Of a stretch of 20,000 nt of DNA, positions 2,902 through 20,000 are shown piece after piece; the stretch's first letter is position 1; each line of letters begins with the position of its first letter. Source of the stretch: Atractiella rhizophila (lineage: Eukaryota); assembly GCA_021432655.1 (NCBI GenBank), contig MU271210.1, positions 134,239-154,238 on the forward strand. Reading direction: 5' to 3'. The notes below the pieces were generated by a model. The model did not search any database. It was not told the DNA's origin and worked only from the letters and a program-made list of their open reading frames with translations. Position numbers and translations under genes: made by a program.

Positions 2902-5116
2902 ATGCATTCCCTTCTTTTCTCAGTCATTGCCACAACCTTGTCGCTCGCTTCTGCGGTAAATGATTGGTCCCTACCCTGCTTGGATGGAGAGTGTTCGTAC
3001 GACCTTCCACCTTCCGTCAGCTCTCGCACAAAAACGACCGTTTCGGGAAGCATGCGAATTGTCTGTGTTTATCTGTCCCCTACCTTTTCTAGCCGTTGAA
3101 ACTTGCAAGGGAAACAGTGGGGAAATACCTCTGCCTTATCGGACATCACGACTGCTGCAGGATGGACGATCCTTGAATGTAATTCTACCTCTCTTGCACA
3201 GGAGATTCGGCTCGTGTGTACCAACGAAGACGGAGATGGTTGCAACAATCTTTTTGCAGGAGCGACAGGTGGTGTGAACAAGCTTGTCCGGCTACCAGAG
3301 AGCGTGAGCCCCCACTCCTTCGTTGGTACACTTGTGACGACGCAAGTTGTGGAACAGTGCGGAAAGATGGCATTTGCGAGAGTGGCGAAGATTTGGACAC
3401 ATGAGAACCAGCAAGTACCGCAGGATGTCGCCCGTTCAAGAAGCAGTCCTACTGTCCATGGTCTGGCAATTGACACCAATTTTGCGGCTATTGATCCACA
3501 GACGTTCGTCCTGCTTATTGTAAGCGTTATCAGACTGTTGACTGCGTTGCACAGTGTTGGGACTCTCAACATCGCAATACAAGGCAGTAACGTCCCCACC
3601 GTTCCTTCAAATACCACCACGACGACGTCTTCCACCTCGGCAGAGGATCGTAGCCTCTTGGATGTAGTTGATGACGCACTGGGAAAGTTCAACCAGATCA
3701 ACATTAATGAAACAAAGACGCTGGACCACATTTCCTTCCAGAAAAACCTGCCGGTGATAGACGAAAAGATCAGCTGTCCCCTACCAGGCGGAGGGAACTT
3801 TGATGCTGGTTTCGATATCTCAGTTAATGGCTGCTTTTGGGGAGATGTCACCCTTGGCATTGTCGCGACGGGCACCGTTGTACCGCCTCAGCTAGACAAC
3901 TTCAACGTTTTTGCTGGTTCGTTGTACACCTCCATTACTGACCTGTACTCATGAGCTAGGGTGAAGGTCTGAGCGCATTTTTTGGTGGAACTCTGGATCT
4001 GAAAGCCAATGCTGGAGCAAGTATCTCTTCCCCCGAAATCACGTTATTCCAACTTGGGCTTCCGGGCCTCAGTTTCCCAGGGTGTGTTTTTCAATATAAC
4101 ACTTGGGTTCATGAATGAACCTTCGCCCATAGAATCCTCAATGTTGGTCCTTCTTTCAGCGTTAAAGCGCAGGCAAAAGCGGCCATCGAAGCCGATGTTG
4201 ACTTGAAGTTTGACCTTTCCTATAAAACCAAGGATACGACCCTCACTTTCCCTCCCAATGAAAAGTATAAGAGTAAAGGAACTTTCAACCCAACCGACGC
4301 CAGTATGTTCATCTCTCTCCCTTCGCACTCGTCCTTATGAATCAACTATAGATCTCACTCTCAGCGTTTCCCCTGATGCTGGAGCTAGCGGCACTCTCGA
4401 ATTTCACCTCATACCCACGGTACGTGGCTTCTCCGGCGTTTCGGGCGAGGTTGGTGCTGACCTGCTTGATGCATAAGATCTCGATCGGCCTGGACGCGCT
4501 GTCAGTCGCTAAAGCAGAGGTTTTTCTCGACCTCGACTCATCTGCTACCGTCACTGCAACTCTGGACGCTAAAGGCCCGACGATCAGCAAGAACCTCGGG
4601 AACTCTTCAGAGCCCGCTCAAATCACTGATGCCGACTTTTCTGGATGTTTAGAGTTGGGAGCTGGCATCGACGTCAATGCGGGTGCTTCAGCTGACTTCT
4701 TCGGACTCTTCGATCAGAATAAGACGGTCAATCTCTTCTCCAAGGACTTCCAGATTTTGAAGGTACTTCTCTCTGACACCCTACCCCTGTGCTGGTTTAT
4801 GAGATAGTGATGGTATCACAATAGAAATGCTTTGGCGACGACGCTGCAGAGACTGTGCAGCGTTTGAAGAGGCGAAGAGCGATAGATCTGCATCGGAAGC
4901 GTCATTCAAGGAGAAATGGAAGCTCGAGGAACTTGAAAAGGCAGGACGACAATGGGCTCAGTTGTCTGCCCAATGTGATCGATACCTCAAAGTTATTCAA
5001 CATCGAAGATACCATTGTGAAGGCTGCCGAGTGCGTTCCACTTCCTTTTTTGTCCCAAGGATGCAGTGATTGAAATGCCGTATTGTAGCTTCATCCTCCC
5101 CAAAAGGCTGTTGTAA
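2902..5116 (+). CDS. Secreted Cys-containing, beta-rich uncharacterised protein of a type common in basidiomycetes
   Basis: Signal peptide MHSLLFSVIATTLSLASA, then VNDWSLPCLDGECSYD..., SALSDITTAAGWTILEC...QEIRLVC and KLVRLPES|CGKMAFARVA. Multiple GT-AG introns. The last exon is predicted as ...KAAD|FILPKRLL* with TAA at 5114-5116. Confidence 0.75.
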
Positions 5117-5415: not shown

Positions 5416-6822
5416 ATGGCTTCCTGTGGACGGCTAGGCGATGAACTTGAACCAGAGGACACCCCTTCAGTTAATTTACCTGTCTCAAAGAATCAACCCC
5501 AGGTCTGCCTTCGCTGTAAAGACCCGTCCGTTTCCATATATGCTAGTCTAGGCACCAACATCGTTTACTGTCGGTTTGTTTTTCTGCTTCATCGAACATG
5601 GACGACTGCTAAGTTATCCTTGATAGCCCTTGTTTTCTCATCAACACAGGCTCCAAGATTCGTCGCAGTTTGGAGCTCGCTTTGGAACGGGAGAGGCATC
5701 TGAATTCTCGACGGAAAAATGGACCACTACCACGAGTAGTGATCGCTGCAAAGGACAATGACGGATCAAGGCATGAGGCTCATGCTATCGTTTCGGGTGT
5801 ACTGATCCAACAGCAGAGCCATGATCAACTTTATCGCCTCACTCTTTTCAACGTCAGATGCTCCGGAGCAATTGTACAATGTCAACGATGGCCTCAAACG
5901 GAAACTAAAACCAAAGATTTTCGGTTACACAACTGTCGTGCATTTTTCGGATGGCGATACTAGTGAGGCGTCGAATCTTCAGGCTTTCTGCGATCGACTC
6001 TCCGTCCCATTCAAGCAGAATCCCATACCAAAATCGTCGTCCTCGACTGTGATTACTCTACAAGATCTTTACCCCTCTGTTTCAATCTTCATCTTCTGCA
6101 GCAATGCGACTTCTTTAGCCGGAAAAGCCATCGAGTGCATATCGAATGGAAGGGGGTGGGCTTTAGCCGAGGAGGTGGGCAACTTGTGGAATTCTAGAAA
6201 GACCAAAGAGGGGCTACACACAGTCGGCGTGAGGCCGCTTGCTGGTGTCGCGCGGAAAGAGTTACAGCTTTTCTGCGATGCTAACGACATTGACAGAGCT
6301 CCTAGACAAGCAGACAAGGCAGGGCCGAAGAGCATCAAAACCATTTGTCGAGGTGAGTACGTTTTTGGTGGTAAATCTGGCTCATGTTCGTACAGAATTT
6401 GTTGATGGTCTCGACGACGCCATGCCTAACACCGTACCAACCATCATGAAGACTGTCGCGAAAGTCGGAATCCGTTCCGAGCAGCCAGGAAACAACAGCT
6501 GCCTCCTCTGTGGAATGTAAGCCCTGTTTTACCAGGGGAAGTGTGTCTGACCTTTATCAGGCCGTCTGAACGCGGGTCGAAGATTTGGCGAGAGAAAATC
6601 TCCATCACCACACTACACGGTCGGAAGGAGAAGGATATGGATTTAGATGCAGACGCGACGGATTATTTGTGCTACGGTTGCCTTATCGAGAACCCGACAC
6701 TGAAGGAGGAGGACCTTGCAGATTTTCTGATTGTTGACTTCCACCGTCGGAGAGGAGAGACGGCAGTGAAAAGGGAACAGCGCGACAATGAGAAAATTGT
6801 TAAGGAGTTCCTCATAGAGTAG
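5416..6822 (+). CDS. NCS2: Cytoplasmic tRNA 2-thiolation protein 2
   Basis: N-terminal CLRCK...YCRPCF, then NATSLAGKAIECISNGRGWAL, VRPL..VARKEL, SIKTICREFVDGLD...NTVPTIMKTVAKV, CLLCG and LCYGC. This motif order matches Ncs2/CTU2. Four introns inferred. Confidence 0.8.
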
Positions 6823-8619: not shown

Positions 8620-9619
8620 TTACCGATTCCTAGTTCCCCCAAACCCGCTTGTGCTCCTCATCGAACCTCCTGCACTTCCACTCCCACTACCACTGGCACG
8701 GGGCTCTGGTCTGATGTATGTAGGGTTGTATCGATCCTCGTCACGGTCGAACAGAGACCTTCCCGTTGTCGTCGTATAACGCGGAGGGGCCTGCTGCTGC
8801 CGATTCGTAAACAACCTATCTGCTGCAGCTCCTGCTGCAAGACCTGTCCAGAACCTAATTTGTTGTGAATCACTAGACGAGAGGAGAAGAGGAGGATAGC
8901 ATACCCTGGACGCCATCCTTCGGATGAAGAACTGGATGTGGTAGATGGCTTGGAGGGATATGATGAACCACCACCTCCGAATCCAGGTCCTCCTCCTCCT
9001 CCTCCCCATCCACAACCGCCACCACCACCACCACCACCACCCCACCCACTTCGCCTTCCCGAGGAAGATGTATTACGAGGTCTACTCCCGTTAGATTGCA
9101 GAAGTCGCAGTACGAATCCATAAGCGATCCAAAGCGCGACCAGGGCGAAGATTCCCCAGAAGAGACGTTGTGGCCAGTCAGTCTCACCTCGAGAGCTAAA
9201 CGAGCGCTTCTGCTCAGAACCTTTGTAGTGCGGGTTCGGCTTGAGAGAATATGTGAGACCGCATGAACCAGCTAAGACGTAAGGATCGGAAGAAGAGTCC
9301 CATCCTTCGCAGGAGACCTCGATGCGGGAGAAGGAGAGAGATTCGGGGAGATCGGCTTCGCACTTTGAACCAAACAAATACATTAGGATTGACAGATATT
9401 CTTCAAGAATAAGCATGCTAATACCTTCCATTCGACGTTGCCAGGGGAAGAAGAGCCTTGGTTCGAGCACTGAACGATGTCAGGCGTGAAGTATGAGCAA
9501 TATTTCCCTTCGCAAGTCAGCTGAGGGATGGGGTCACCGCGTCGTGCTGTTGTCATCCGATCCGAATAAAGCGTCAATGCACTCAAATTATCCAGCGGAA
9601 TACGACGTGTCCGTGTCAT
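8620..9619 (-). CDS. SARAF: Store-operated calcium entry-associated regulatory factor (TMEM66/DUF1183 family)
   Basis: MTTARRGDPIPQLTCEG..C...TPDIVQCSNQG...VEWK|CEADLP...IEVSCEGWDSSSDPYVLAGSCGLTYSL, one TM helix, a Gly-rich region, WRPG|FWTGLAAGAAA and C-terminal STSGFGGTRNR*. Confidence 0.92.
8965..9048. repeat. (CCA)n/(CCT)n trinucleotide microsatellite encoding poly-Gly of SARAF
   Basis: accaccaccaccaccacc and cctcctcctcct tracts are directly visible. Confidence 0.85.
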
Positions 9620-10720: not shown

Positions 10721-13700
10721 ATGTTGACGCCATCAAAGCGGGTATCTCCTCCACATCCTGAAGCCCCATCGTCAAAAAAGCCAAAACTTTCTCCTTCGGC
10801 AACTGCAACCTCTAATCTTCAACTCACTCCGGCTCCTCCTGCTGCGCCAATTGGAACCTCAGGCACACCTTTGAATAACAAATCGAGAGCAGATCTTATC
10901 GACCGATCCGCTGAGAAGGAACGAGGGCAAGCACTGCTGCATCGATTGGATGGACCTTCTACTGCTAAGGCAGGGTTAACTCGAGAGTATGTGTTCCATC
11001 TTCTGAAGTCACAACTTTGCGTGATTTCTAATATGACACCTCAGTCCAGAGGAAGTAAGACAGATCATTTACGATGCGTCCAAAGGATCAAAGTACTTCA
11101 AGAACCAAGAAGAGCGGTCGGACAAGGTAGAAAAGCGGATCGAACAGATGATGGTCCGGCTAGAGGAGATGTTGAAGACTAAGAAGGACCTAACGCCTGA
11201 GGAGAAGACGGTAGATAGGATGTTGCTGGACTTGGAAAAGACGAGGGACCTCTCGCAGACAATTGGTGCGTGTCCACCTCCTGTTGTGCTTGCCGACACT
11301 GACGATGTTCCTGACTGTCACAGTCGTGGTTGATGCGGATGCGTTCTATGCAAGTGTGGAGGAGCTGTACAACCCAGAACTGAAAGGCAAGGTACGGACC
11401 GTGTCAGGCGCTTAGCCCTTGAACAAGAAAACAGCGACAAATCAACTTTTCATAGATCTTCGCAGTCTCGGGAGGGGTTATATTGACTGCATCATACGAG
11501 GCTCGAAAATTTGGTGTCAGAAGTGGGATGGCAGGTAAGCATCACCTTCTGCTTTGTCCTTAGCTCGCTGAAACTGCCTGACAGGCTACATTGCTGAGAA
11601 GCTTTGCCCAGGGATCTTGATGGTCAAGCCAGACTTCAAACGGGTGTGCATTGTTTCTTCAGACTTCATGTTTGCTGTTGACCATTGCGAACGATAGTAT
11701 TCGGAAGCATCGAAGAAAGTCATGGATGTGCTGGCCACTTTTGATCCGAATTATGCCCCTGCTTCGCTAGATGAAGCGTATTTGAAAAAAAAAAAAAAAA
11801 AAAAAAATCACCTTCTGCTTTGTCCTTAGCTCGCTGAAACTGGTTGACAGGCTACATTGCTGAGAAGCTTTGTCCAGGGATCTTGATGGTCAAGCCAGAC
11901 TTCAAACGGGTGCGCATTGTTTCTTCAGACTTCATGTTTGCTGTTGACCATTGTGAACGATAGTATTCGGAAGCATCGAAGAAAGTCATGGATGTGCTGG
12001 CGACTTTTGATCCGAATTATGCCCCTGCTTCGCTAGACGAAGCGTATTTGAATGTTGTATGTGTCGTATTATCCTGCCTTGATAGCTATCTGAGTAACGC
12101 TTTAGACCTCTTATATCGTATCTCTCTATCTTAGCGGTTATTCAAATTCTAACAAGAGGAATCAGAAACAGAATGGCCTTACCCCCGAAGAAGTCGGTGT
12201 CCGAATACGAGAGAAAGTAAAAGAGATATCTGGCCTGACCGTCTCTTGTGGGGTCACACCGAATTGTATGCTCTCGAAAATTGCTGCAGACCTCAACAAG
12301 CCAAGTGAGGATCTCTTGCCGCTTTCCTAAGTTACATCCCTAACTCTGATGTGATGAGAGATGGCCAATACGTCGTGCCTCCAGACAGAGACGCGATAAA
12401 GGAGTTCATGAAGAACATGCCAGTTCGCAAAGTCCCGGGGGTTTGTCACCTACGTTCGATTGTTGGACGCAATCTCACTCGACGTTCGTAGATTGGACGC
12501 GTCTCGGAACGCTGGCTTCAGGCACTGGAAATCAAGACCCTGGGTGATGTTTTCGACTCACGGGGACGTCTTTACTTGGTTCGAAATGAAATCGGTCTCG
12601 GATTTCTTCTAAGAGGATATCTTGGGCTTGGTTCGACAAAGGTTGAACCTCACAAGCGAGAGGGGAGGAAGAGTATCGGGAATGAGCAGACATTCACTAC
12701 CATTTGGAAAGAGGAGGACTTGGATGCTAAGGTCCGTTGTTCTTATCCTAATTCAAAGATGCTCAAACAGCGCAGCTGCGAGAAATCGCAAAGAACCTCG
12801 AAACAGATATGAAAGAAGGTGGATGGAGCGGGCGCACGATATCCCTTGGATACAAGCTCGACACATTCGAGACATTTTCACGGTGCGTCCTAGTCAAGCT
12901 TCTTCGGGGTTGGCTAATTTCATCTTCGTTTTCAGTGCCTCTTCCCTCCCAAAAGGTCGCTATATTCACCGCTTCGAGGACCTGTATCAAGAAGGCAAAA
13001 AGATTTTAATGAAAGAACTCAAAGCCCGACAAACTCTTTTCGATAGCGGTGGGAAGGTGGTTGGGTGTGGGGGGAAGCGAGAACTCCGTCTACGTCTCAT
13101 GGGTTTGACGATGTCAAATCTCCGAGACGAACAGGCAATAGCTGAGCAGGCAAAGAAGGGCCTCGACTCATGGGTGGTGACCTTGAAGGAGCAGGATAAT
13201 GTAACTGCCGGCCAGAGTTCCAAACATCGATTGGAAGATAATGAGGTGAAGTTGTTCGAGGCGGATGATCTTGTACAAGGGGTAGACATCAGGGAAGGAG
13301 ATGATGAAGAAGAAGAAAAGGAGTTCAGATTTCGACCCTACTACACTGGGGGACCGAGTATCAACTCGAAGAGGCACAGCACGAATGGACAGGTCAGCCC
13401 TCGTCATCAGTTAAGGTTCGATGCGCCGGTGAAAGGAAAGGGGAAAGAGGAGACGACGGAAGAGTATGAGTGCCCCGTTTGCCTCAAGCTCTTCCAGATG
13501 GGTCTAGGAGAGTTCAAGTCTGTCCTTCCCCTTCTCTCCCTTTGCCTTGATGAAGCAAAGTTTGCTTATTCCATCGTTAGTTCCCACGTCGACCAGTGCC
13601 TTAATCGTTCGTATTCACTCTCTTACGAATTAAGTACGGACGAGTTAACGTATATTGCAGGTTCACTTGTATTGGATTTGACCAAAGATTCCGATGACGA

Positions 13701-13866
13701 CTCCATTGAGAATGCTGTGTCGACAAAAGGGACAGAGCGGAACAAAGTGACAACTGGTACCCAAAAACGCCGATCTTCCCCGTCGGCAAATAAGGCTAAG
13801 GATAAAGAGAAAAAGAGAAAAAGACCCAAAACGAACACATTGGATGTAATGTGGGGTACGAAATGA
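10721..13866 (+). CDS. POLK: Y-family DNA polymerase kappa (DinB-like) with C-terminal UBZ zinc finger
   Basis: N-clasp AKAGLTRD...IIYDASKGSKYF, catalytic VDADAFYASVE, TASYEARKFGVRSGM, SLDEAYLN, SCGV.PN.MLSKIAADLNKPNGQ, VRKVPG|IGRVSE, RKSIGNEQTF, LRLMGLTMSNL, CPVC...HVDQCL and a basic NLS-like tail. Interrupted by the tandem duplication at 11541-12052. Confidence 0.93.
11541..12052 (+). repeat. 246-bp direct tandem duplication separated by an A23 tract
   Basis: 11541-11786 and 11807-12052 differ at 7 positions counted by eye. The A run spans 11785-11807. Confidence 0.95.
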
Positions 13867-14057
13867 GTTGAGGGTATAGCAAATTGTTCTTGTTTGTTGC
13901 TGCCGTTGCTGGTGTCTTCATGTGTTGTCCTGTTATCCAGAAGTTGTACCCAATTTTGTATTTCGCAATTCGAACGTCGTCCTTTCCAGGATCATAACGT
14001 CCCTCATTCACTGCCGTCATATCGAGAGGTATATGCGGACCGCCGTCAACTAAGTTT

Positions 14058-15144
14058 TCACGATGCCTTCTTCCGTCTGGCAACAACCATTCGACTGGGA
14101 ATCCAAGCTCTCCTTCTCGAATCTACAGAACATATGAGATCATTCACAGACAGCAGGAAAGAAGCAGGGAAACATGCCAGCCCATTCAATTCGACAATTC
14201 TTATGGAGCGCCTGAATCCATCCCTCTGAGTATCCGAACAGCAGAAACAGCGGTTTGGTCGTCTCCAGGGCAAGGAGACAGTCTACACAAATCGATCGAA
14301 CATGTAAGACCATCAGACTTTCAATCTGTCACATCCATAACGGGAAGTAAAGTCTGACGGAGGACGGGAGGTGACAAACCGCGCAACAAGTACCGACCTG
14401 CCATCTTCAGGTCTTCATCGCCAGCCCAATCACCGATGGGACAATCCAACCTCTTCGCGAGGATTAAGTGTAATTTTGGGTTCCGTCCCACCATTTCTGC
14501 TAGGTGGGCTGGGGCATCAGGATGGGCTCCCTAATGTTTTTGAGCGGAGTGTTCGACAGTCCATGACGGCATGGAAAAGAAGGACAAACTCTTGCAGCCA
14601 TGCATTCGCGCAGAGTACGCCACCACAGTCTATCCCACGCATATGATCAGTATTTGTTAATATTTTGCATGACAGAAGCAGATAAAGAAATTGGCGCACA
14701 AGGTCGCTTCTCCAACACTTCCCTCTCCCTCGAATACGCTGAAAGGCATCTCCCCTGGCTCGATGAGGACCATCATCCCACCTTCCTCGAGTCCCTGTGC
14801 GATTTGCTCAATTATGGCTTCCCAATCCCTTATCTGTACGTCACTCATGATCAGCCATCTATCCAAAATCGGATAAAGGAGTCAGCGACTCACTCCCCAT
14901 ATGAGACATCGCATGAATATCAGCTCAAACTTCCTCTTCTCCCCCTCCCCTATCCTGTCCTCCCTCTTCCGGAGGATATATGAGTAATCCAAGTCGTCCA
15001 CCTTGGTGAAGTCCTCGCAAACAAAGGTCACGTTCGGAGGCACCCTTTCCGGTTGCACTGGCGCCAGATCCACACCAATCACAGTGGAGTTGGGGAACTC
15101 GTCGCCCATCTGGATGGCCCAAACTCCAGAGCCGGTGCCGAGGT
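14058..15144 (-). CDS. LaeA/TAM-like class I SAM-dependent methyltransferase, 3' exons
   Basis: Acceptor cag ends at 15145, then (D)LGTGSGVWAIQMGDEFPNSTVIGVDLAPVQPERVPPNVTFVCED...ELIFMR, IRDWEAIIEQIAQGLEEGGMMVLIEP, CPIGDW, and a last exon ending VVARRKKAS*. No normal upstream exons are seen on the minus strand. Confidence 0.88.
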
Positions 15145-15159
15145 CTGTTCCATCCCATT

Positions 15160-16853
15160 CAAAACTCTCAGTGCATGCCAGAGTGGTACTAGTGTTTACT
15201 AGGAGTACAGGTAGGTCAGCTACACCATGGCGCCATGCTCTTCCACTCACCTGTCCTCCTTACACAGCCGGGTATAGCCACTGTCCGCATAATACCATAG
15301 TAAACTCCTCACCACGTTTAACAGTCAGCGACGACTGTTCGGTTTCGTTACTCGGTCTTTTAACCCCTTACATCTTCTGCCTCCATCTGCCTGATGGCGC
15401 TTTCAGTCACAGTTTCACCTATTATCTACCATCAAGCTGACTACCTAGATTCCGTGGGAAAGACATGCCCCCATTCTTGTCCCTTTGCCCTTTTTCAGCT
15501 GGCGAGGAAAGTAGCACTCCGTGACCTCTAACACCCGGACCTGGTTGGACGGCGTCCATAAATTCTTCAACCCGGAAGTGCTAAAGGAGTTTGCTCTTTT
15601 TTTGCTTAAATATTAGATACTCCCTCACAGTTTTGAGCCGGTAGTACTAACGGTCCGTCTTTGTAAGTACAGCCAAACGCAGTGGGGTATTTGATCCCTG
15701 CAACTGATGTTATATAGTACTTCGTTTATTTGAGGTAAATCTCGGGATATAACTCAAAGTTTAAGCTTGCTGACGTTTTCACCAAGACTCTTTATCGCCG
15801 AGTTCGGACGTTCAGCTTAAAAACTCTAAAGAGCGAAAGTACGCTGAGTTCAAAGATACCAGAGGGATACTTCGTCCCGTTTAACTCGAGCCTGCGAGTT
15901 CGCTTATGACAGTTGCCCCACGTCAGTTTTACATTGTTGAAATCCAACAGTTATAGTTGAAAACTTACCAACTTGTAACCACGTTTAATTAGAAGGCTTC
16001 TTTCGTTCAGCGGGCTCAGGGCTGTCTAACCTCTCCATGTTGTTACCACTTGCGAAGTGAGACTCGCTATACGGAGTGACCTAAAGTCACAGGTATAGAC
16101 GTACAACTAGTAACATCGTATATCTATAGCTATTTGTTTCTACCCGTACTCGTTTTCCTAACACGACTGTACTCGAACACGAGGAGAGGGGACCGAGGGT
16201 TAGCTAGAGTCGTTGATGGTTCGTTTACCTTTGAGGTAGAAGCTCGATAAGGACATGGGGGAGGGTGGTTGCAGACGGTCACGTGGTCGTGGTGGTAGTT
16301 CGGGTTGCGGCAACGCTTCGGGTACTGAGTTCTTATACCAATACTGTCCCTCGGAAGTTAGCGTAAGAGGCTGAGCTTGAGCGTTTCCTCGGAGCGATCG
16401 CGACCGTGGATGCTACAGTTGTACCTGCTACTTCCCTCGTCGAACTTGAGGTCGTGAAGGACCAAGAGGATGCGTCTTCCCTCCTCCAACCAGGAAGAGC
16501 AAACGTCTATACATAACTGTCCTCAAGTAACACTGAAGAAAGAAACCATAGCTACAGTATCCAAGGTGTTAAGGCTTGTGCTGTAGCCACACAGTGAGGA
16601 AGGAAGGAAGTCCTTGTTGTCAGCTCTGATTAAGGAGGGTCGAATAATGATGGGTTTACTACGGCTCCTCGAGCTGTCCGACCTGACAGTCGTGCTGAAC
16701 ATGTTTGAGGACGAACCCGCAGCTTTGATGGGATAGCTTCAGGAGAGTGACGTGGAGCTGGGCTTCCTAGGGCAAGGTCCGGGTGCTTGGTAAGAACCAG
16801 GCAGAAGGGGTGGTAGAGTTTGAAGTTTAGACCCCCCGGCGCGACTCTTAAAC
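15160..16853. other. Mirror-written segment (reversed without complementation); left boundary about 15160-15175
   Basis: The ORF track is empty from 15441 to 16738. The non-reversed complement of the segment gives spliceable exons that complete the adjacent methyltransferase. Confidence 0.93.
16323..16797. CDS. 5' exons 1-3 of the LaeA/TAM-like methyltransferase, legible only as the left-to-right complement
   Basis: Complement exons 16323-16486, 16562-16587 and 16642-16797 translate to MTQEYGYDREPSIAFSDSNSQRSLASAGTYDVNMDDEGSSLNSSTSWFSYAEGRR|FHNSEHDIA|YYYPNDAEELDRLDCQHDLYKLLLGRRNYPIEVLSLHLDPKDPVPGPRTIL(D), separated by GT..AG introns. Confidence 0.9.
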
Positions 16854-17224
16854 NNNNNNNNNNNNNNNNNNNNNNNNNNNNNNNNNNNNNNNNNNNNNNN
16901 NNNNNNNNNNNNNNNNNNNNNNNNNNNNNNNNNNNNNNNNNNNNNNNNNNNNNNNNNNNNNNNNNNNNNNNNNNNNNNNNNNNNNNNNNNNNNNNNNNNN
17001 NNNNNNNNNNNNNNNNNNNNNNNNNNNNNNNNNNNNNNNNNNNNNNNNNNNNNNNNNNNNNNNNNNNNNNNNNNNNNNNNNNNNNNNNNNNNNNNNNNNN
17101 NNNNNNNNNNNNNNNNNNNNNNNNNNNNNNNNNNNNNNNNNNNNNNNNNNNNNNNNNNNNNNNNNNNNNNNNNNNNNNNNNNNNNNNNNNNNNNNNNNNN
17201 NNNNNNNNNNNNNNNNNNNNNNNN
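16854..17224. other. Assembly gap (371 N)
   Basis: Run of N. Confidence 1.
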
Positions 17225-18069
17225 GTCCCCCAACGTCCATGTAGTCGTTGGTGACATATCCGACGCTACTTCTATCAAAGTGAGCTCCACCTCTTCATGT
17301 TGCAATGGATCCAATGTCCTGCATCGATCGACTGATTGAAATCTGCGAATGAAAAGGCTGCCGTCGCAGAGGTAGCGAGCAAGACAGAGAGAGTAGACGT
17401 GTTGATCAACAATGCTGCCATCACGACCGAAGGTGGGAAACCGACGCCATTTATCGAGTTACCAATCGAGCAATTCGAACAGGCAGTAAGTCCCTTCATA
17501 TCCTCCCTCAATTCTGCTCATTATCATCTCCAGTTCCGCGTCAATGTCATCGGTACCATCCAAACCACGAACGCCTTCCTCCCTCTCCTAAGGAAGGGAG
17601 AGAAAAAAGTGGTCAATGTGAACACGGTGGCAGGATCCATCGCTGCAGTAGATCCCGACAAAGATCTGCTTTGGAAGAATATTGGCTTCTTTGGAGCATA
17701 TTCCGTGTCTAAGGCGGGTAAGACACTTTCTCGCTCCCCTTCCAGAATCCCAGCATTGATGTCAAGTGGCTAGCGCTTAATATGGCAACGAGGAAATACG
17801 ATGCCAACCTTAGACATGAAGGGTTCACCTTCATTGCCCTGCATCCTGGGTGGGTAAAAACGGAGATGGGAAAGTTGGGCGGAGGCGATAATCCAGTTGA
17901 GGTAGGCCATGTTCTCTTCCTCGTGATAAGAGTTGATCAGGCTCTGCAGTCCGACTACACAACTGAGATGAGTGTCAGAGATTGCCTCGCTATCATTGAA
18001 AAGGTAACTCCCGACACGGCCCATAAGTTTTATGCCGTTGATACAGAGGACAAGACCCTTCCTTGGTAA
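17225..18069 (+). CDS. Short-chain dehydrogenase/reductase (CsgA/C-factor-like), 5' end lost in the gap
   Basis: NVHVVVGDISD, VDVLINNAAI, FRVNVIGT, catalytic YSVSK, ALNM, IALHPGWVKTEMG, terminal LPW*. The TGxxxGxG motif is not visible and presumably lies in the gap. Confidence 0.92.
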
Positions 18070-18623
18070 TCTAGATGTAGATTCCAGTTCAACTTTGATC
18101 AAGTGATATTTCATTCATTGATTCATCACACAACCGAACCAGGGCAACAGTCACAGAATAAAATTATCACCAGGCTCACTCTCAAAGTCTCAATCAATCG
18201 AAAAACCAGAGGGAAAGAGGTTAGTAAAGTTAGGAAGGAAAGACATAAAATTTACATTATCAAACATATTAAGGGATTGAAAGCCAAACAAGGTGAAAGT
18301 AGCGCTCTAGAACGGCACAAAAAAGGGGAGAGATCATCACTTAAGCCCAACCAAACAGGATCTGAAGTATTCGAACAGGCTCGAAACTGTCGCTAACGTA
18401 CCGCAAACGAATCAAGTGCAAAAGGTAATGCAACAAACAGGTTCGTGAAGGAAGGGGAAGAGAAAGAAATACGTTGGATTAGTTTTGTTGTTCACATCCA
18501 ACTCTTGGTTGCTGCGACGCAAAAGAAGGAGCATGCAAGGTTGGTGGGATACAGGACCAAGGGACCAAGGGACTGATTCGTAAGGCAGAGGAGCAAGATG
18601 AAATGGAGTCAGAATGAAGCGTT

Positions 18624-20000
18624 TCAGCGCTTACGAACAAAAGCTGTACCACTGTCAGTGGCAAATTACCCATTTCGGCGAGAAACGCACTTTTGTTGAG
18701 AAGAGCTAAAATCTTTGGAACGTTCAATTGGACATATTCGAGATCTAAGAGCTGCACGTTTTCTTTTTGCTAGTGGACGCAAACAATTGTTAATGAGACG
18801 TCTGGACATCAAACGAAAACAAACCTTCTCTAACAAATCGTCAATCTTCAAGTCCATTTCAAGAATAGCCTTCTCTCTCCCCTTGTAGTGAAGTCCGATG
18901 AGATACGTTCCTGGACTTGGGGAAGTGATGAGGAAAAAGATGTTGGATTGACTGGTGCACCAGGTCAGACTGATTCACTGAATTAGCAAATGCAAACCGA
19001 TTCTCAGGCACGTTAGTCTCAACAATGATGCCATCCTTTTCGAATTGGGCATGAGAGAACTTGAAGGGGCCAAGCGCTTGAGCCTGCTTGTTCACCTTTT
19101 TCTCCTTCCCATCCACCGATACGACTCCCACTCCTCCAATCGGCTTATTCTTCCCACCACCACCACCTGAGGTCATTCGTACGTTCTGCAAATACGCCTT
19201 GTACTGCTCTAGCTGAGATCTGAGGTAGTTGTTATGATCGCAAATCGTCTTGTAGACGGATTCCAGTGACTTGGTCTCCGAAATAACCTTTTCCCTCATA
19301 TTTCCCAGATGCGTAAGTTCCGCCCCGACTTCCTCTGTGAGAAGTTTATATCCATCCCTTCTATCCACGAGTCTCAGCTCCTCCAACTCCCGCAACATCT
19401 CCTTGACCTTGATCCCTTTCCTTACAAGCGTAGCATCTTTAGCCGTGGCCGCCCGTTCTGCAATCACTGGGAGGTTAATGGGACGACGTTCGGTGAGTTG
19501 AGGGATAGAACGGATGAGTTGAACAAAGATCGATTTGGACTCCATGTAGAGGATGTCATTTTGAGTCAAGTTGTTTTCTGCCATCAGAGTCGTCGTCAGA
19601 TCCTGAATCGGCATTTCCCAACGTGAGAACAAGGCGAGCTCGATCGCCCGATTTTCTTTTCGCGAAACTTGGGGAGGAGCAGGTCCTAGGTCGTCGAGCA
19701 GGATGCGCAAATGATTCTTCTCGTTTCTTGCCTGTAAAACCATCAGCTTCAACACCAGCCGCCAAGTCGACCGAAACACGCACAAGAGCCTCAAGGTGTT
19801 GTTGTAGAAGAGAATGCGTATTATACAATTCGTTCAAAGTGATGTTGAGAGACAAATCTTTCTTGGAAAGAGCCATATACGAATCCATCTAGACACATTC
19901 CACCTCAGCAAGGAACGTTAGGTGAGGGAAGGTGACAGACCTCGAGCGACTCATAAAAGTCTCCCACCTCGCAGAGGGAGTTCAAAAACGCGTTGATTCT
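18624..20000 (-). CDS. Ras GTPase-activating protein of the fungal Gap1/GapA type (RasGAP_C domain), 3' part
   Basis: MDSYMALSKKDLSLNITLNELYNTHSLL, PAPPQVSRKENRAIELALFSRWE, VYKTICDHNNYLRSQLEQYKAYLQNVR, GPFKFSHAQFEKDGIIVETNVPENR, MDLKIDDLLE, LLDLEYVQLNV. The last exon gives TFVRKR* with TGA at 18624-18626. The gene continues past the right edge. Confidence 0.9.

Follow-up and report, generated by a model that had tools for sequence, protein, structure and literature searches.

Biological inversions yield the reverse complement of the sequence that was turned around, and we know of no replication, repair or recombination process that copies a strand in reversed letter order. An ordinary misorientation, or inversion misassembly, typically concerns a contig-sized piece beside a gap that has been placed in the wrong orientation, so that a gene crossing the junction is broken. 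The locus described here resembles such an error in all of these respects, yet differs in one: the misplaced piece of an ordinary inversion misassembly is a reverse complement, whereas the present block is reversed without being complemented and therefore goes unseen in six-frame translation and in alignment to either strand.

The closest described procedure that would leave a comparable footprint is the extension of gap flanks with long reads. As described in the excerpted text of the PBJelly paper (PMC3504050), the program takes reads that align to within 25 bp of the start of a gap and extends the flank with the unaligned part of the read; the outcome termed 'gap reduced' is one-sided, with N retained for the remainder. 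According to a similarly excerpted source, other fungal drafts of the same period were patched likewise (PMC12923307). The present locus shares the one-sided extension with an N remainder, and the alignment of the other allele stops here 22 nt before the contig end. Unlike the block, the flank extension set out in the excerpt of PMC3504050 involves no reversed writing, and the excerpt of PMC12923307 makes no mention of it either. A literature search for reverse-without-complement assembly errors returned none under the phrases tried (the matches listed were synthetic control sequences or unrelated uses), and a search for a publication on the Atractiella rhizophila assembly gave none among the matches listed.

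The window (the whole 20,000-nt stretch that was analyzed, from contig MU271210.1 of the A. rhizophila assembly GCA_021432655.1) contains a block which is confirmed to be true sequence written in reversed, non-complemented order. As a feature of the genome the mirrored order is not real, and it reflects an error of sequence handling rather than biology. The initial annotation, made from the letters alone, had placed a mirror-written segment at 15160-16853, where it hides the 5' half of a methyltransferase gene. The mirror order and the right end of this segment held up, while its start proved to be about 20 nt too early. The features of the locus are collected in the table below.

Features of the mirror-written block, the methyltransferase gene and the gap-side neighbor (positions in the window)
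Feature	Coordinates	Strand	Evidence
Mirror-written block, 1674 nt, letters reversed but not complemented, directly adjoining the N gap	15180..16853	.	Polarity, depth, contig loose ends, tblastn
3' part of the methyltransferase gene in normal order, from motif I (DLGTGSG) on, several exons, P0001 residues 166-413	14061..15144	-	tblastn, spliced joints
3' end of the junction intron in normal order; AG acceptor 15146-15145	15145..15179	-	X3 and X4 contigs leave at 15145, X1 at 15157
Mirrored region upstream of the methyltransferase gene, gapward in true order	15180..16169	.	Open frames only
Exon 1, letters complemented, ascending coordinates; ATG 16170, in-frame ATG 16323	16170..16486	.	Mirrored splice model
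Intron 1, 75 nt, GT..AG mirrored	16487..16561	.	Mirrored splice model
Exon 2 (RFHNSEHDI)	16562..16587	.	Mirrored splice model
Intron 2, 54 nt, GT..AG, CTAAT at 16628	16588..16641	.	Mirrored splice model
Exon 3 (AYYYPNDAEELDRLDCQH ... RTIL), phase 1 end, G at 16797	16642..16797	.	Splice model, X3 30/30, X4 29/30
Mirrored 5' part of the junction intron; GT donor 16798-16799 in the complement	16798..16853	.	X1 loose end 30/30
Assembly gap, 371 N, hides the 5' end of the dehydrogenase gene	16854..17224	.	N run, P0007 start
Short-chain dehydrogenase gene, normally written, 5' end lost in the gap	17225..18069	+	P0007, Pfam adh_short

The coding content of the block was examined in relation to P0001, a protein of 413 aa with the source name 'S-adenosyl-L-methionine-dependent methyltransferase [Atractiella rhizophila]', which is 99% identical to the window over its motif I exon. 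As given, the longest open frames of the block are 92 aa on the plus strand and 75 aa on the minus strand, compared with 168 aa when the letters are complemented only. Four versions of the window were prepared, in which the segment 15160-16853 was kept as given, only reversed, reverse-complemented, or only complemented, and P0001 was searched against each by tblastn. Residues 166-413 matched 15145-14061 in all four versions. Residues 1-165 matched the reversed-only version at 15843-15217 on the minus strand, collinear with the remainder of the gene, and the complement-only version at 16170-16796, whereas the as-given and reverse-complemented versions gave no match to these residues at E ≤ 1e-3. 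The match of the mirrored reading to residues 1-165 has an E-value of 5.8e-107. An ordinary biological inversion was rejected, since the reverse-complemented block gives no match to this part of the protein. No copy of the block was detected elsewhere in the window, where only chance matches of 12-13 nt occurred. The reader's observation that neither strand codes in the segment thus agrees with both the short open frames and the lack of a tblastn match in either natural orientation, and the methyltransferase homologues that it expected for the complement translation were found.

The composition of the block is likewise that of DNA read backwards. A polarity statistic was calculated as the log-likelihood of the sequence as written minus that of its reversal, with a strand-symmetric Markov model for which the remaining window served as training sequence, so that normal DNA scores positive. 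The block scored -48.3, while 37 control blocks of the same length gave a mean of +36.3 (SD 9.5, minimum +22.6), i.e., the block lies approximately 9 SD away from the controls. All seven inner 400-nt segments of the block were negative at Markov orders 2, 3 and 4. Outside the block, two to three of 86 such segments were barely negative (3201-3401 and 6601-6801), with a minimum of -3.9; these were considered as candidates for further mirrored stretches and dismissed, their values being within noise. The enrichment in GTAC, TAG and CTA words that had been noted by eye is borne out by the counts: per kb, GTAC occurs 6.49 times in the block versus 2.47 times in the remaining window, TAG 15.35 versus 8.31 times and CTA 15.35 versus 8.54 times. 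The polarity-sensitive dinucleotide ratios are all inverted in the block, e.g., TA/AT at 1.75 versus 0.62.

Independent evidence for the order of the letters was obtained from contigs of four public runs, placed on positions 13000-19500 of the window. Two of the runs (X1 and X2) were tentatively taken to be DNA, the kind of X3 is unrecorded but its contigs are spliced, and X4 is a root metatranscriptome. Compared with the window, these runs show many single-letter differences and may not be the window's own reads. In all four, depth was zero over 15387-17122 and near zero in 15170-15386, with both flanks covered. One X1 contig departs from the window behind 15157, and its loose end equals the reverse of 16853-16824 in 30 of 30 letters. 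The spliced X3 and X4 contigs depart behind 15145, an exon edge; the X3 loose end is identical to the reverse of 16796-16767 (30 of 30 letters), and the X4 loose end agrees with the same stretch in 29 of 30. In the three other orientations of the window (as given, reverse-complemented or complemented only), none of these X1, X3 and X4 loose ends had a match. A second X1 contig tracks the window to 15179. Past that point it carries a diverged allele of the sequence with which the reversed block starts: its tail aligns from offset 19 of the reversed block with a score of 19, while none of the three other orientations scored above 9. For a query composed half of block and half of flank, the best run word shares were 0.32, 0.28 and 0.23, which are compatible with an absent block but too far below 0.5 to be given weight. 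Since the loose ends match the reversed block and the written order is without depth, the DNA and mRNA in the sampled runs carry the normal order. Continuity of raw reads into the sequence as given had been named beforehand as the result that would speak against an artefact; as examined on contigs, none runs continuously across the left junction (15157-15179) into that sequence.

The same contigs revealed heterogeneity on both sides of the block. The same DNA runs contain two diverged alleles or copies over 13000-15179 and 17225-19500; X1, for example, has both the window letter and the P0001-type letter at 14422 and 15044. A second copy of the dehydrogenase, P0008, is listed on another contig. 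The assembly thus seems to be a mosaic of two haplotypes, or to include duplicated regions.

The edges of the block coincide with those of assembly units, the right edge being flush with the N run and the left being located at a contig end with a diverged overlap. When the forward sequence of 15160-15179 is compared with the reverse of 16853-16834, 15 of 20 letters are alike, a score equaled at only one of 1634 other offsets. Because 15160-15179 resembles the reversed start of the block, and because the second X1 contig agrees with the window as far as 15179, the mirrored block begins at about 15180. These 20 nt are thus present in two versions in the window, a forward one that comes from one allele and a mirrored one that comes from the other, and the block is a separate assembly unit which overlaps the left contig end by these diverged 20 nt and was left unmerged. 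In the X1 contig the junction intron comprises 13 + 56 = 69 nt. It had been predicted that the G at 16797 joins the AC at 15144-15143 in phase 1, which the spliced X3 and X4 contigs confirm, and that reversal in place would restore one gene with an intron of about 70 nt. The gene is indeed restored and the intron length agrees; the flip, by contrast, is not a clean one, as a plain in-place reversal leaves the 20-nt allelic duplicate (15160-15179) inside the intron.

When the block is read in true order, the methyltransferase gene extends from exon 1 in the mirrored part, through the junction intron, into the normally written part. In the latter, the minus-strand open frame 14882-15259 carries DLGTGSGVW, and the spliced joints include 14833/14894 and 14629/14700. 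At a further joint, 14280/14380, the spliced X3 and X4 contigs carry two and five extra letters, respectively. The exon join reported there is out of frame relative to P0001, so that the true exon edge would lie a few bases from the reported joint (14280-14383). The N-terminal half of P0001 contains exactly the peptide that the reader had obtained from the complemented letters, and it shares 158 of 165 residues with the mirrored half (seven differ). The normally written half agrees with P0001 at 189 of its first 192 residues (three differ). The ATG at 16323, the three exons, the GT..AG introns and the CTAAT signal that had been described are all present in the complement-only reading, although the start is not that of P0001, which begins at the upstream ATG 16170, in frame with the former.

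In its exon structure and in these shared residues P0001 thus closely resembles the gene of the window. Its variant letters are those seen in runs X1-X4, e.g., at 14404 and 14422, and P0001 is a second allele or copy rather than the product of this window. As it differs from the window in both halves, it provides no evidence on how this locus stands in the public record.

In terms of protein family, P0001 matches Pfam Methyltransf_23 (PF13489) with 51.8 bits against a cut-off of 27, while the motif I exon of the window by itself reaches 23.0 bits, which is under that cut-off. No solved relatives of P0001 were detected at E ≤ 0.01, and its NCBIfam matches were generic methyltransferase models only, all sub-threshold. 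A conserved N-terminal stretch (GR.[YF]H ... P.D..E.DR.D.QH) precedes motif I, as the initial annotation had stated, and in the window it is encoded by mirrored exons 2 and 3. Nine of its columns, E102, R105, P118, D120, E123, R126, D128, Q130 and H131, are invariant in all six aligned fungal proteins. A stretch of this kind precedes motif I in LaeA-like or 'TAM-domain' fungal methyltransferases, to which the protein may be related. The gene is an ordinary fungal class I SAM-dependent methyltransferase, an intact relative of which is already public. Upstream of the gene, the mirrored region 15180-16169 contains open frames of 106, 101, 89 and 71 aa.

On the other side, the block directly adjoins the only N run in the window, as had been pointed out in the initial annotation. 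Beyond it lies the dehydrogenase gene (Pfam adh_short, 59.8 bits), represented in the public record by P0007, 'NAD(P)-binding protein, partial [Atractiella rhizophila]', which begins at 17229, 4 nt past the N run. Over its 236 residues P0007 is 100% identical to the window, except where the choice of exons differs. That a partial protein identical to the window starts just past the N run indicates that the gap belongs to a public assembly. The X1 and X2 contigs hold 185 additional letters ahead of 17225. Residues 1-47 of P0008, a full-length dehydrogenase and a close copy of P0007, were not found in the mirrored upstream region at E ≤ 0.01, and the N-terminus of the dehydrogenase is therefore located in the gap rather than at the far end of the block.

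The P0007 model also retains two in-frame introns of 48 nt (17486-17533 and 17900-17947) and has a different first splice; both of these stretches are skipped in the spliced X3 contigs and in P0008. The public P0007 gene model is thus probably wrong in addition to its truncation by the gap. Other genes in the window were noted in passing. An open frame of 417 aa at 12613-13866 on the plus strand has no Pfam match at E ≤ 0.001, and the X3 joints 13517/13581 and 13606/13661 suggest that it is a spliced, expressed gene. Two minus-strand genes appear ordinary, one for a SARAF-like protein (8658-9479; PF06682, 92.4 bits) and one for a protein with a RasGAP C-terminal domain (18859-19833; PF03836, 111.8 bits).

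Several explanations may be offered for a stretch with these properties. That the block is ordinary non-coding or diverged sequence, or a plain reverse-complement inversion, in which the mirrored reading arises by chance, has a vanishingly small probability: the E-value of the mirrored match, the failure of the reverse-complemented version, the distance of the polarity statistic from its controls and the exact agreement of independent contigs with the reversed block all stand against it. Almost as improbable is the physical presence of the mirrored order in the DNA of the isolate, i.e., a 1.7-kb polarity-reversed copy in place of the normal sequence. The scattered single letters at which runs X1-X4 differ from the window could be taken in its favor. 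Nevertheless, the DNA contigs of X1 and the RNA contigs of X3 and X4 are in normal order, and the written order appears in none of them. Moreover, the block is flush with an assembly gap and has the diverged 20-nt overlap typical of a patch, and the reverse-complemented version, which a natural inversion would have produced, fails here.

A less extreme proposal is that the public assembly is correct and that the reversal was introduced only afterwards, during data handling or on purpose, to serve as a reversed-sequence control. We regard this as unlikely. A blind reversal at a later stage would need to strike both edges of an assembly unit, namely the N run on one side and the contig end with its 20-nt overlap on the other. 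The existence of P0001 might seem to argue for an intact gene in the public sequence, but the window does not encode that protein (three substitutions in 192 residues and seven in 165), so that it is no proof of an intact gene at this locus. In our assessment, 15180-16853 is very probably a gap-extension patch that was written reversed and non-complemented by a sequence-assembly step, the DNA of the organism being in normal order. A reverse-without-complement bug at the gap had been considered the likeliest cause from the outset, and both the restored gene and the contigs that follow the reversed order support it.

The software step responsible for such a patch we infer as follows. The short-read assembly would have been broken by two diverged haplotype copies at 15179, the end of the original contig. 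A long read or contig from the other copy may then have aligned to the left contig only to about 15157, owing to the divergent intron, and its unaligned tail would have been appended at the contig end, giving rise to the diverged 20-nt duplicate. The tail was presumably written with the wrong strand operation, either by complementing only on a minus-strand read or by reversing only, and the rest of the gap would have been left as 371 N. Read correctly, the block contains the 5' part of the junction intron, methyltransferase exons 3, 2 and 1 (on the minus strand) and approximately 1 kb of upstream sequence that would run toward the gap. PBJelly may be considered as the responsible tool, but only as a lead.

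It is conceivable, though rather doubtful, that a systematic strand-handling bug in gap patching produced the block, in which case other gap-adjacent patches, and other drafts from the same pipeline, would also be written backwards. A bug that affects every minus-strand patch should be common, and the window offers only a single gap. If the bug were indeed systematic, further patches would hide parts of genes from six-frame or alignment-based annotation. At the present locus, annotation loses 165 methyltransferase codons together with the upstream region of about 1 kb. Checks of read orientation that look for inversions only are blind to a reversed, non-complemented block, as are six-frame translation and BLAST on either strand. 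The polarity statistic, which separates block and controls so widely here, could be used to screen all gap flanks of draft assemblies. Biologically, the locus adds nothing new; its value lies in genome curation, in which the block can serve as a flag for curators and as an example on which polarity scans of gap flanks can be tried out.
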